A stretch of DNA of 64,000 nt from assembly GCA_030390025.1 (NCBI GenBank), contig CM059431.1, forward strand, positions 150,972,001 to 151,036,000, written 5' to 3'. This DNA is from Squalus acanthias (lineage: Eukaryota). This document shows positions 32,898-45,488 of this stretch, in pieces. The position numbers and the translations under genes are program-made. The stretch's first letter is position 1. Every line of letters starts with the position of its first letter. The notes below the pieces were generated by a model. That model was not told where the DNA came from and made no database searches. It was given only the letters and a program-made list of their open reading frames with translations.

Positions 32898-34494
32898 TGT
32901 AAGGGATTCTCTCCTGACCCTGCGTGTCTCGTAGCCTGTGAGGTTCACGCGGCTCTGTGCAGCCTGTATGTCAGTTCGTGTCTAGGCCTGGTCTCCAGCC
33001 AGTCTGGGAACACTAGACACCCCTGTGAGTGGTTCGAATCACTCTCCCTTACGGTTCTAGACACTGGACTTAGATGCGAGAGCAGTAATGGAGATAAAAC
33101 TCATGTAGACTTGGTTTGAACGGTACGAAATGGAAAATCTTTATTGCATGATACTTAAAATTATGAAATACATGTCATATGCACAGATTAATGACAGTAC
33201 AATCTTACAAACGGTTATAATCACTCTTAGGGAAACGAGGAACGACCAGCACAACGTAAATAGGGCACACATTACAAATATCCTTAATCTTTAAACCCTC
33301 CCCTATCAATGTCTATCCTAAACTAGCTTCGTAGGATCCCGAGACTCATGCTCACCACTCGTAATAACTCGGAGAAATCCCGAATGGTTGATCGGATGTT
33401 TTTCACCGCAGCACCCACGTGTTGGTCAGGAGATCTCCTGGTCCCACTTGTTTACTGCTTCTGCTGCTCGGTCAGTCGGCTGGACCGTCCGCTGTAGTGA
33501 AGACCTCTGTTGGTTGGATACAAGGTATGGTGGAGCACCGTTGTCAATATCGCTGATACGATGTGTTTGCACAGTCCAGTTATCATCGATGCAATATGTC
33601 TTGTTAAAGAAGAAAACTTCCTGTCGAGAAGACTTGGCTGATCGACCTACAGGCGCGGTCGGGATCTACTGACCGTGGCGATGGATAAGGTCTTCTTCTC
33701 TTCTCCTCTCATCTCATCTCATCTCATCTCATCCCGGGCCTTCGGTTCCGCTGCCAGCTACCAACATAGGTCTTTGCAACAGTCTTTTACACAGGAGCAG
33801 CCACGATGATAACAGCAACAAGCGGCAAGAGTCAAGAACACGAGGCAAGAGCAAGAGCAAGAGGCCAGAGAGAGAATGGACGGTTTGGGGCCTGCAATTA
33901 TAGTGCACAGTTCTTCCGTTTCCCGCCCAACTACAATGTCCATTCTTTTGTTTAAGGTTTGGCGCCCAAAATGTCCTGTATGGGTGATCTCTGTCCTTAA
34001 TGGGTTTCGGGGCTACTCCTGAATGTTTGAGTACCTGTTAATATTTCTCTCATTGTTAAATCGGTCGGTGTTCCCCCTGGAGGGGTTTGGGGCTTCCAAG
34101 TGTCCTGTATAACTACCTGCTAACGGCTCTCTCATCGTAGAGCCGTTGGGAGTTTACATATTAATGTCCTTTGGATGGGCCCTTGATGGCTTTCCTTTGT
34201 ACCTGGGAGACCGATTCCAGTATCGATGTTTATACTGTAAACCCATAATGTCCTGTGTAATTGTCTTCACTGTGCTGAATCGTTATCGATCTTGCAAGAA
34301 TGTTTATTGGAACGCCATCTTGTCTGCCTGCTGAAAAGTCTAGAATGTTCTGTCACGCGGTGCGGCGGCCATTTTACAGGCTGCTTGTGTCCAATTTAAA
34401 CCTGACAGCATTCCGCTGAAATAAAAGCTGTTTTGAACGAAACTTTGTGTTTTCTCCTCATTAAAATGAAATCGCGATAATTGCGAATTCTACA
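32898..34494 (-). repeat. 3' LTR (1597 bp)
   Basis: Direct repeat of 43892-45488 at a constant offset of 10994. TG...CA termini. Confidence 0.97.
33140..33145 (-). terminator. Candidate polyadenylation signal AATAAA in the LTR (copy at 44134-44139)
   Basis: TTTATT on the + strand, about 240 bp from the U5 end of the LTR. Confidence 0.6.
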
Positions 34495-34506
34495 GTCCCT
34501 CCTGTT
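34495..34506 (-). promoter_or_regulatory. Polypurine tract (plus-strand primer)
   Basis: AACAGGAGGGAC immediately precedes the TGTA start of the 3' LTR on the minus strand. Confidence 0.75.
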
Positions 34507-34918
34507 GATGCGAATAACTCCGCTTATCGTATCAAAAATCTCAGTGGTGAGCAATCTTATCTCGATTTCACTCCGAATCCAGTAAATTAATCCCATAAAT
34601 TTTAACTTCACTAGGGTCTCTGTGTCGTCCTCATTTCCCAAGAAAAATCACACTTTATATCACCATAGGCATCATTTGCCCTTAAACTTACACCACTTGT
34701 TTTCCTTCCCGGCGTAACCAGGCCGATACCTCACGCATCACCTGTATATTTGTCTTTTATTCAAGGGAAGGAAAAACAAAACCCAAAAACCAAACAATCA
34801 ACACCATCACCAAAATAAACAAATCCCAACTCTTAAACATATCGAGTTTCCAACGTATTTACAATGAGTACAAACTTCCGCGGCGCACGTGGCGAGCGGG
34901 AGTGACGCCATTTTCCCA

Positions 34919-43887: not shown

Positions 43888-43891
43888 TTTC

Positions 43892-45488
43892 TGTAAGGGA
43901 TTCTCTCCTGACCCTGCGTGTCTCGTAGCCTGTGAGGTTCACGCGGCTCTGTGCAGCCTGTATGTCAGTGCGTGTCTAGGCCTGGTCTCCAGCCAGTCTG
44001 GGAACACTAGACACCCCTGTGAGTGGTTCGAATCACTCTCCCTTACGGTTCTAGACACTGGACTTAGATGCGAGAGCAGTAATGGAGATAAAACTCATGT
44101 AGACTTGGTTTGAACGGTACGAAATGGAAAATCTTTATTGCATGATACTTAAAATTATGAAATACATGTCATATGCACAGATTAATGACAGTACAATCTT
44201 ACAAACGGTTATAATCACTCTTAGGGAAACGAGGAACGACCAGCACAACGTAAATAGGGCACACATTACAAATATCCTTAATCTTTAAACCCTCCCCTAT
44301 CAATGTCTATCCTAAACTAGCTTCGTAGGATCCCGAGACTCATGCTCACCACTCGTAATAACTCGGAGAAATCCCGAATGGTTGATCGGATGTTTTTCAC
44401 CGCAGCACCTACGTGTTGGTCAGGAGATCTCCTGGTCCCACTTGTTTACTGCTTCTGCTGCTCGGTCAGTCGGCTGGACCGTCCGCTGTAGTGAAGACCT
44501 CTGTTGGTTGGATACAAGGTATGGTGGAGCACCGTTGTCAATATCGCTGATACGATGTGTTTGCACAGTCCAGTTATCTTCGATGCAATATGTCTTGTTA
44601 AAGAAGAAAACTTCCTGTCGAGAAGACTTGGCTGATCGACCTACAGGCGCGGTCGGGATCTACTGACCGTGGCGATGGATAAGGTCTTCTTCTCTTCTCC
44701 TCTCATCTCATCTCATCTCATCTCATCCCGGGCCTTCGGTTCCGCTGCCAGCTACCAACATAGGTCTTTGCAACAGTCTTTTACACAGGAGCAGCCACGA
44801 TGATAACAGCAACAAGCGGCAAGAGTCAAGAACATGAGGCAAGAGCAAGAGCAAGAGGCCAGAGAGAGAATGGACGGTTTGGGGCCTGCAATTATAGTGC
44901 ACAGTTCTTCTGTTTCCCGCCCAACTACAATGTCCATTCTTTTGTTTAAGGTTTGGCGCCCAAAATGTCCTGTATGGGTGATCTCTGTCCTTAATGGGTT
45001 TCGGGGCTACTCCTGAATGTTTGAGTACCTGTTAATATTTCTCCCATTGTTAAATCGGTCGGTGTTCCCCCTGGAGGGGTTTGGGGCTTCCAAGTGTCCT
45101 GTATAACTACCTGCTAACGGCTCTCTCATCGTAGAGCCGTTGGGAGTTTACATATTAATGTCCTTTGGATGGGCCCTTGATGGCTTTCCTTTGTACCTGG
45201 GAGACCGATTCCAGTATCGATGTTTATACTGTAAACCCATAATGTCCTGTGTAATTGTCTTCACTGTGCTGAATCGTTATCGATCTTGCAAGAATGTTTA
45301 TTGGAACGCCATCTTGTCTGCCTGCTGAAAAGTCTAGAATGTTCTGTCACGCGGTGCGGCGGCCATTTTACAGGCTGCTTGTGTCCAATTTAAACCTGAC
45401 AGCATTCCGCTGAAATAAAAGCTGTTTTGAACGAAACTTTGTGTTTTCTCCTCATTAAAATGAAATCGCGATAATTGCGAATTCTACA
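43892..45488 (-). repeat. 5' LTR (1597 bp)
   Basis: Direct repeat of 32898-34494, lying adjacent to the PBS and the gag start. Confidence 0.97.
44890..44897 (-). promoter_or_regulatory. Candidate TATA box in the 5' LTR (copy near 33896-33903)
   Basis: CTATAATT on the minus strand, followed about 20-30 nt later by the pyrimidine-rich CCATTCTCTCTCTGGCCTCTTGC. Confidence 0.45.

Follow-up and report, generated by a model that had tools for sequence, protein, structure and literature searches.

Does a provirus whose envelope folds like a paramyxovirus fusion (F) protein have to be a lokiretrovirus? The question is raised by a complete provirus in the cartilaginous fish Squalus acanthias. It lies within a window of 64,000 nucleotides (assembly GCA_030390025.1, contig CM059431.1, positions 150,972,001 to 151,036,000; positions below are those of this window unless another contig is named), in which it occupies 32898-45488 (12,591 bp) on the minus strand. 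An earlier note on this DNA had taken the element for a very recent lokiretrovirus or a relative of that group. We find instead that it is most probably a full-length member of a very large, recently active family of endogenous retroviruses (ERVs), with a polymerase of the canonical-retrovirus kind that falls into the grade around snakehead retrovirus (SnRV), with ERVs of frogs and the coelacanth as its nearest relatives, and that it falls outside the lokiretroviruses. It represents an apparently new lineage that has been very successful, in an assemblage that was already known. The lokiretrovirus label is wrong for its polymerase and right in spirit for its envelope (Env), and what is new is an F-type Env on a polymerase backbone that is neither loki nor foamy.

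The placement of the polymerase is based mainly on the reverse transcriptase (RT). Anchors were set by matching proteins to labelled RT rows in the available part of the Wang & Han supplement (PMC7947760): P0199 agrees letter for letter with the SnRV row and P0025 almost letter for letter with the Loki-Bsp and Loki-Cne rows, and these served as the SnRV and loki anchors. The RT set held 57 rows from 58 proteins, of which the long-branch P0202, P0278 and P0279 were dropped, leaving a maximum-likelihood tree of 54 rows with 13 Ty3/gypsy rows as outgroup and one row each for lokiretroviruses and SnRV. In this tree, the 41 rows with two RNase H domains are split from the Ty3/gypsy rows at 100/100, and the loki anchor is sister, at 100/98, to a clade of the remaining 40, namely: the query, SnRV, and the frog/coelacanth, bird and gamma/epsilon-like ERV rows. 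The query and the 92%-identical P0007 form a deep branch in a polytomy with these other groups. In the best tree, the query pairs with the frog/coelacanth rows, though only at 63/50, and a quick tree of all 57 rows agrees with the 54-row tree. A forced clade of query and loki costs 24.8 units of log-likelihood and is rejected by the approximately unbiased (AU) test (p 0.032); a forced clade of query and SnRV survives (AU p 0.36).

The RT itself carries the motifs LPQGFHNSP and QYVDD, as do SnRV and murine leukaemia virus (MLV), whereas the loki rows read CPFGY.NSP and IYVDD. The motif LDISNGFWS of the query RT is confined to SnRV rows in the available part of the same supplement (3 of 3 occurrences; PMC7947760). 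Domain-wise BLAST gives RT identities of 51-54% to the frog/coelacanth proteins, 43% to SnRV, 37-38% to gamma-like ERVs and 35% to loki, and SnRV Pol, which was absent from the whole-Pol search, surfaced when the RT was searched by itself. By its RT sequence, the element is not a lokiretrovirus and would sit on the canonical-retrovirus side, in the 'SnRV-like' assemblage, which is deep and only loosely delimited.

The other domains tell a less uniform story. Tether identities are 46-50% to frog/coelacanth, 40% to loki, 31% to gamma-like and 28% to SnRV proteins, and integrase scores follow the same order (288-324, 252, 153 and 135 bits, respectively). In the integrase tree, which holds no CGIN1/NYNRIN gene proper, there are no strong nodes, and loki is weakly nested among frog, coelacanth and bird rows. 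Of the RT and integrase phylogeny that the earlier note had proposed, the RT half therefore separates the query from loki and the integrase half gives no strong placement. The loki membership or special closeness that it had inferred does not hold, given the position of the loki anchor, the AU result and the SnRV/MLV-type motifs; in the broad sense, the RT groups with a retroviral lineage already described.

The envelope was examined through its predicted structure. The AlphaFold model of Env, built on a 38-row alignment, has a mean predicted local distance difference test (pLDDT) score of 61 and is confident at about residues 240-310 and 420-650. Foldseek matches this model to human parainfluenza virus 3 (hPIV3) F at E 1.1e-11, among 233 PDB matches at E ≤ 0.001 that include the F proteins of parainfluenza virus 5, Langya, respiratory syncytial virus (RSV), Nipah, Hendra and Newcastle disease virus. 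VIA-align superposes it on post-fusion Nipah F with a Z score of 12.5 and an rmsd of 5.0 Å over 288 residues, and all 50 matches that it lists are paramyxo/pneumovirus F. On the evidence of the model, Env is a class I fusion protein of the paramyxo/pneumovirus-F fold, which bears out the earlier comparison with Mononegavirales fusion proteins. Residues 245-660 share this fold with F (hPIV3 1ztm, Nipah 8dmj, RSV 3rki), and Env has the same order of parts as F, from the cleavage site through the fusion peptide, a long helix and the beta-rich domains to the second heptad repeat and the anchor. Cleavage at RQRR would free the fusion peptide. Env and F differ in sequence, with only 7-14% identity, and in context, which is a retroviral genome for one and a negative-strand RNA virus for the other. 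The provirus also lacks a separate attachment protein, a role that the extra N-terminal region probably fills: this part, of about 230 amino acids (aa) with an Ig-like motif, would be the one that binds the receptor.

At the level of sequence, Pfam gives no family for Env at E ≤ 0.01, PF00523 has no match at E ≤ 1 with the query Env or 13 of its relatives, and PF03408 has none with the query; one chimeric relative shows a weak Baculo_F match (E 0.0011). When the Env family profile is compared with PDB sequences, foamy virus gp130 (8rm1_D) comes first, weakly at E 0.018, while foamy Env (8rm0/8rm1) is absent among the structural matches listed for the model. A single-sequence PDB search returns only weak Ig-type matches (junction-adhesion-molecule and antibody V, E 0.8-1.3). 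In Pfam, the query has an Ig_3 match at E 0.46 and one relative a V-set match at E 0.045, and UniRef names a shark relative 'Ig-like domain-containing'. The N-terminal 224 aa modelled separately (17-row alignment) gave a mean pLDDT of 35.5 and no usable fold, so that the Ig-like head stays a lead from a sequence motif. An ESM Atlas search with Env returned one uninformative chordate cluster (0.84).

The closest Env, from a search with three matches, is that of a skate at 75% identity. A wider search listed 50 matches, 34 of them at E ≤ 1e-10. Across the sequence searches, relatives come only from Rhinoraja, Pristiophorus, Mustelus and Chiloscyllium among skates and sharks and from Pelodytes, Mantella and Xenopus among frogs, and outside the skates the nearest, in sharks and frogs, are 17-32% identical. 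With the closest Env from a skate and other close relatives from skates and sharks, the sequence itself points to a cartilaginous-fish host, probably a shark or batoid. None of the 50 listed resembles the printed loki Envs, and none has the 136-aa tail described for SnRV Env. Judged on titles and abstracts, a literature search brought up no description of an F-like Env for ERVs of the SnRV-like kind.

The provirus does not stand alone, as its near-identical copies number more than 1,000. Copies were counted in the 3.7-Gb assembly with 24-mers allowing at most one mismatch, for which reversed controls gave 0 sites; the check, suggested by the earlier note, returned 1,069 sites for pol (RT), 1,589 for gag and 1,880 for env. 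Among the best-scoring matches, 57 of 57 env and 31 of 31 pol copies are open at 99-100% identity. Since best-scoring matches are a biased sample, a second sample followed the order of sites along contig C1; it took in 20 env copies, out of the 21 sites met first, and the copies at the first 20 pol sites. Here, env is open at full length in 15 of 20 copies and open with in-frame length changes near the 3′ end in one more, and the remaining four are broken (three by 1-nt insertions, one by a stop); pol is open in 13 of 20.

Env copies differ from that of the window at 19-120 of 2,352 nt. The synonymous divergence (dS) reaches 0.20 and the non-synonymous divergence (dN) is at most 0.014, with dN/dS of 0.054-0.108 (about 0.07). 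For open pol copies, dN/dS is 0.14-0.27. The low ratio in env implies that most of the divergence arose while env was under selection, and this points to a family that reinfects cells or invades repeatedly, and not to one that copies itself within the cell. The family would therefore, on the strength of purifying selection on env between copies, have spread mainly by reinfection of the germ line. The step from env selection to spread by reinfection is an argument reportedly made by Belshaw et al. in 2004. Within the same proviruses, env has diverged from the window copy at synonymous sites about 2.5 times as far as pol has (for example, dS 0.17 and 0.068, respectively, at C1:18.96 Mb), which hints at exchange of env between subfamilies or at different mutation pressure. 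In addition, same-strand pol pairs occur 10,975, 11,003 and 9,799 bp apart (C3:117086964-117102369, C2:171995877-172011310 and C21:9876932-9891143); this spacing is about that of one provirus minus one long terminal repeat (LTR) and suggests that proviruses lie in tandem with a shared LTR.

In a second size class, the LTRs are about 7.6 kb apart, compared with 11 kb in the full-length form. This short form retains the LTR, gag, the tail of Pol and env, while protease through integrase is replaced by about 340 nt of other sequence and the Pol tail becomes a separate open reading frame (ORF) of 324 aa with a new N-terminus. Two such loci are L017 (C10:24700-30900), which has open frames for gag, the tail and env, and L018 (C9:47162300-47168400). 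Lacking pol, the short form needs Pol in trans, and the family thus appears to carry along a pol-deleted gag-env derivative that it complements.

The two LTRs of the window copy differ at 6 of 1597 positions (0.38%). This corresponds to about 3.8 My at the catshark rate of 0.5e-9 per site per year, a rate quoted in a paper, and to about 8.5 My at the elephant-shark rate of about 2.2e-10 in the available text of PMC4422223. The provirus is hence very recent in substitutions, as the earlier note had it, and not necessarily in years, as its host evolves slowly. Near-identical copies also occur under several species labels: 14 sequencing runs from 7 studies with six organism codes contain 47-74% of the 31-mers that were sampled from the internal region.

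A self-comparison of window 31500-47000 reveals a direct repeat pair starting at 32898 and 43892, and comparison base by base gives two LTRs of 1,597 bp each with TG...CA termini, 6 substitutions and 0 indels, in agreement with the count made by eye in the earlier note (about six, with no net indel). The junctions read ...TTTCCCCTG (ending CCCCTG), then LTR to LTR, then CCTGGGTCT..., within the same 15/31-bp satellite on both sides; the earlier note had already put the provirus inside a satellite array. CCTG is present in every unit of this satellite, so the motif by itself could stand at the junctions by chance; the 4-bp target duplication is supported by the fact that removing one CCTG restores the satellite register exactly. 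Integration yields a 4-bp duplication (CCTG).

Directly 3′ of the 5′ LTR, in element sense, lie GAAAA and then the primer-binding site TGGCGACCGCGGCAGGAC. The host tRNA-Arg(TCG) genes, which are located in arrays on genome contig C26, end in ...GTCCTGCCGCGGTCG, and with the added CCA this is the exact 18-nt complement of the site. Host tRNA-Arg(TCG) is accordingly the probable primer of reverse transcription, going by the 18/18 match. The first six loci found with the tRNA 3′-end motif had to be rejected, since they are the primer-binding regions of related ERVs, in which ARAGORN finds 0 tRNA genes. At about 38.99-40.89 Mb, C26 holds long arrays of intron-containing tRNA-Arg(TCG) and tRNA-Ser(GCT) genes, repeated in tandem about every 1,623 bp; one Arg copy has the anticodon GCG. 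Other, diverged ERV subfamilies of the genome have a 20-nt version of the same primer site, and their LTR end (TGTAAGGG...) is similar. The corresponding 17-nt motif has 561 exact sites genome-wide, with the tRNA arrays counted in.

The minus strand holds uninterrupted frames for gag, pol and env (603, 1,490 and 783 aa), as the earlier note had read them. The first ATG in the gag frame (43886-43887, A + TGG...), its putative start, overlaps the primer-binding site, and further Met codons follow in frame at aa 19 and 25. Pfam finds no family in Gag at E ≤ 0.01 and, at E ≤ 10, only coiled-coil noise and a weak zf-CCHC; the CCHC motif matches nucleocapsid proteins, and the coiled-coil-type noise matches fall at aa 81-207. 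Beyond the single TGA at its end, the gag frame meets no further stop up to the protease motif LLDTGAS, so a Gag-Pro-Pol product could be made by read-through of UGA in its UGA-CUAG context. According to Loughran et al. in 2014, this is reportedly a strongly leaky stop context in vertebrates. Within Pol, Pfam finds both the tether and a second RNase H, and YVDD is present, in line with the dual-RNase-H Pol of the earlier note. The tail of Pol contains a 39-bp tandem repeat (window 37583-37698, 3 copies, 97% matches); other copies of the family have in-frame deletions of 39 or 78 nt at this repeat and a 21-nt insertion about 360 nt upstream. After env, no supported ORF of at least 60 aa that could be an accessory gene was found, and coding capacity beyond the usual genes is limited to the 280-aa tail of Pol.

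The env mRNA would use a splice donor within the long LTR and an acceptor that precedes the env ATG by 13 nt. This is indicated by one contig of run X1, in which window 44350 is joined to 37283 with 7,066 nt skipped; in sense orientation, the skipped segment starts with GT and ends with AG (GAGTG|GTGAGC ... TCACAG|GAACCAAGGAAGGATGG). The contig may also derive from a DNA copy of the spliced form. None of the runs recorded as RNA contains the sequence, and 0 reads matched in the one raw-read RNA run (X15, from another organism code); these two results say nothing for or against expression.

Several points speak against our reading. The tether and integrase are nearer to loki than to SnRV (40% against 28% identity, 252 against 135 bits), and the query Pol is without the MLVIN_C domain that SnRV Pol carries. 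The RT tree has only one lokiretrovirus and one SnRV row, it is built without foamy, lenti, alpha, beta and delta references, so that the 'SnRV-like grade' rests on a polytomy, and an AU p of 0.03 is a modest rejection of a query-loki clade. On the side of Env, the model reaches a mean pLDDT of only 61, with confident residues limited to about 240-310 and 420-650, and the comparisons within the SnRV-like grade were made without SnRV's own Env. The pairs compared for dN/dS are non-independent, as the copies share ancestry, and the splice joint is seen in one contig, the shorter side of which spans 23 letters, from a run only guessed to be RNA.

Lokiretroviruses (Wang & Han 2020, PMC7947760) share with the element the LTR-gag-pol-env layout, young copies with near-identical LTRs and an F-type Env with an R-x-K/R-R site, fusion peptide, coiled coil and transmembrane segment. 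They have dual RNase H as well, although a tether with a second RNase H is common to all retroviruses and does not discriminate. CGIN1 and NYNRIN are the same gene. The case for a lokiretrovirus, or for a sister of the lokiretroviruses, that is new to cartilaginous fishes could be argued from the F fold, the hallmark of lokiretrovirus Env, from the scores of tether and integrase, and from the automatic name 'NYNRIN-like' of its nearest named Pol relatives, given that loki integrase has been tied to CGIN1 (PMC7947760). We consider this very unlikely, however: the RT lies outside that lineage (100/98; AU p 0.032), has the motifs of SnRV and MLV, and is less similar to loki (35%) than to SnRV (43%) or to frog/coelacanth ERVs (51-54%). 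Env has neither a PF00523 match at E ≤ 1 nor, among the 50 relatives listed, any that looks like a printed loki Env, and its part before the cleavage site is about 330 aa long, compared with about 115 aa in Loki-Str as given in the available text (PMC7947760); this N-terminal part is about 230 aa longer and bears the Ig-like motif. The five vertebrate classes of loki hosts in the main text do not include cartilaginous fishes (PMC7947760), as the earlier note had supposed. In the available part of Table S2, five cartilaginous-fish assemblies stand without the asterisk that appears to mark loki-positive genomes, one of them from Chiloscyllium punctatum, a holder of an Env relative (PMC7947760).

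A foamy-like virus, related to spumaretroviruses and of the kind reported for cartilaginous fishes, is also improbable. Foamy Env is itself F-like (PMC11468914, available text), gp130 (8rm1_D, E 0.018) is the best PDB match of the Env profile, and prototype foamy virus integrase is the best PDB integrase match (118 bits). Yet the top structural matches of Env are all paramyxo/pneumovirus F and not 8rm0/8rm1, there is no PF03408 match and Pol has no Spuma-specific Pfam family, and protease through RNase H scores 200-217 bits against foamy viruses compared with 236-239 against MLV and xenotropic MLV-related virus. The query Gag has a CCHC knuckle and its pol lies in the gag frame behind a stop in leaky context, whereas foamy viruses, in the available text of PMC1224870, have a Gag without zinc finger and a separately spliced pro ORF.

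More weight, though still little, is due to an ancient chimera in which an SnRV-like retrovirus acquired env, and perhaps the stretch from tether to integrase, from a loki-like or another F-bearing virus. Such a chimera, which we hold to be rather unlikely, would account for an RT nearer to SnRV with a tether and integrase nearer to loki, for the nesting of loki among frog, coelacanth and bird rows in the integrase tree, and for the F-type Env; OVEX1, the bird relative of SnRV, carries an unrelated env in the available text of PMC2717909, so env swapping does occur in the SnRV-like grade. Against it, the integrase tree lacks strong nodes and nothing at sequence level links the query Env to loki Envs. 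Moreover, the frog/coelacanth relatives have the same Pol make-up and frogs hold Env relatives too, so that any exchange predates the shark-frog split and is indistinguishable from common descent. The remaining candidate, an errantivirus-like Ty3/gypsy retrotransposon with an F-type env, has next to no probability. F-type env genes are known in metazoan Ty3/gypsy elements (bioRxiv 10.1101/2023.10.26.564294, available text), the best single PDB match of Pol by bits is Ty3 Gag-Pol (246 bits), and Pol has a weak SH3_Tf2-1 match, but the RT tree, with the 13 Ty3/gypsy rows as outgroup at 100/100 to the 41 dual-RNase-H rows, and the domain order, with a tether and a second RNase H, refute it; the same preprint, in its available text, reports that no vertebrate homologue of invertebrate errantiviruses was found.

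An SnRV-like polymerase with an F-type Env is the reading that we prefer, and several features fit SnRV. In the tree, the two RTs fall on one side and a sister relation survives the AU test, gag and pro-pol share one frame across a stop, and Gag combines a coiled coil near its N-terminus with a single zinc knuckle. The primer-binding site matches tRNA-Arg, the primer that SnRV uses. A coiled coil and single zinc finger in Gag and suppression of a stop are described for SnRV in the available texts of PMC2717909 and PMC1224870. The 'SnRV-like' ERV clade is that of Hayward et al. 2015, as cited in PMC4977317, and in the available texts it includes the elephant-shark CmiERV lineage I (Han 2015, PMC4422223) and has hosts among fish, coelacanth, amphibians, reptiles, birds and elephant shark (PMC12193657, PMC4977317, PMC4422223), a range that fits the hosts of the query's relatives (fish, coelacanth, amphibians and birds). 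The differences are nonetheless considerable. RT identity to SnRV is only 43%, the query integrase lacks MLVIN_C, the stop context is UAG-GGC in SnRV and UGA-CUAG here, SnRV has ORF1-3 and a 3′ORF whereas the query has no accessory ORFs, and the Env tail is 136 aa in SnRV and 35 aa here. The elephant-shark CmiERV copy is dated to about 75 My (PMC4422223, available text), in contrast to thousands of young copies in the present family.

The nearest Pol relatives are the ERVs annotated 'protein NYNRIN-like' in frogs (Rhinophrynus, Pyxicephalus, Aquarana and Xenopus tropicalis) and the coelacanth (Latimeria), with 42-44% identity over RT, RNase H and integrase, 51-54% in the RT, and an equal set of Pfam domains; they are deeply diverged from the query (0.71 substitutions per site). 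In the literature, we found no published name for the group formed by these ERVs and the shark/frog Env relatives.

Positions of all features are collected in the table below. The rest of the window is almost all satellite (7-10704, 15371-25618 and 27351-29163): a 26-bp-unit array followed by AG-rich 10-16-bp arrays with extreme strand skew. An assembly gap of 200 N (29164-29363) immediately precedes the satellite that hosts the provirus, and a 907-aa 'ORF' on the plus strand (30396-33119), which crosses from satellite into LTR, arises from the lack of stops in the repeat unit and is no gene.

Table. Features of the provirus and its flanks, in window coordinates
Feature	Position	Strand	Remarks
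Left flank, 15/31-bp satellite	29364..32897	.	unit TTTTCCCCTGGGTCTC; last 4 bases CCTG (32894-32897), one copy of the target duplication
3′ LTR (element sense)	32898..34494	-	1,597 bp, TG...CA
Candidate polypurine tract	34495..34506	-	sense AACAGGAGGGAC; purine-rich, directly upstream of 3′ LTR; putative function
env	34919..37270	-	783 aa; signal peptide, N-terminal extension, furin site, fusion peptide, first heptad repeat (HRA), beta-rich core, second heptad repeat (HRB), transmembrane anchor, 35-aa tail
Env transmembrane anchor	35027..35083	-	aa 730-748; hydropathy scan
Env F-like core	35291..36538	-	aa 245-660; aligns with paramyxo/pneumovirus F structures
Furin-type motif RQRR	36281..36292	-	aa 327-330, then hydrophobic GLVNDAFTAFNTGTSVV; putative cleavage site
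Ig-like motif, candidate receptor-binding head	36746..37033	-	aa ~80-175, VTVGKRICLTCSG...W...DEGIYVC; weak matches
env splice acceptor	37283..37284	-	AG at 37285-37284; exon from 37283, 13 nt before env ATG
pol ATG-ORF	42006..37534	-	1,490 aa; frame of gag, behind one TGA
Pol C-terminal tail	37534..38376	-	280 aa; acidic, proline-rich, no family match
Integrase	38404..39453	-	Pol aa 852-1201; HHCC zinc, rve core, SH3-like C-terminal domain; Integrase_H2C2 + rve
Acquired RNase H, PF00075	39697..40128	-	Pol aa 627-770; E 2e-19
Tether (degenerate first RNase H), PF17919/PF17917 (RT_RNaseH_2/RT_RNaseH)	40270..40668	-	Pol aa 447-579; RT_RNaseH_2 E 2e-21
Reverse transcriptase, PF00078 (RVT_1)	40855..41343	-	Pol aa 222-384; E 1e-35; YVDD
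Protease active-site stretch LLDTGAS	41956..41976	-	from sequence
gag stop and context TGA CTA G	42072..42078	-	pro-pol resumes in same frame from 42075
gag	42076..43887	-	603 aa; coiled coil ~aa 80-210; one CCHC knuckle aa 520-533 (42289-42330)
Primer-binding site TGGCGACCGCGGCAGGAC	43869..43886	-	18/18 complementary to 3′ end (+CCA) of host tRNA-Arg(TCG)
5′ LTR (element sense)	43892..45488	-	TATAAA, AATAAA and splice donor inside
AATAAA in 5′ LTR	44134-44139	-	element position 1350
Splice donor in 5′ LTR	exon end 44350, intron GT 44349-44348	-	one contig joint
TATAAA in 5′ LTR	45223-45228	-	element position 261
Right flank, same 15/31-bp satellite as left	45489..64000	.	first 4 bases CCTG (45489-45492), second copy of the target duplication

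Taken together, the combination of parts, the copy number and the selection signature merit specialist attention. Annotators should note that an F-like Env does not by itself justify the label of lokiretrovirus. The population biology is unusual for an ERV, with env open in most sampled copies, a dN/dS of about 0.07 and a gag-env parasite without pol. ERV families that reach thousands of copies are, according to Magiorkinis et al. in 2012, said to be usually env-less. The virus may even circulate today, to judge by a copy number above 1,000, the strength of purifying selection on env and the near-identical sequence under six organism codes.

The finding bears, finally, on the origin of retroviral envelopes. 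F-like proteins had earlier been recognized in lokiretroviruses (by sequence, 2020) and in foamy viruses (by structure, 2024), and the present family, with relatives in sharks, skates and frogs, is a third separate deep branch with an F-like Env. Were this Env native to that third, SnRV-like-related lineage, the F type would become the likely ancestral envelope of retroviruses, later replaced by the gamma type, in a virus that may still circulate; we regard this wider view as tentative and, for now, doubtful. Whether there was one ancient F-type env or several captures becomes directly testable with trees of Env and Pol.

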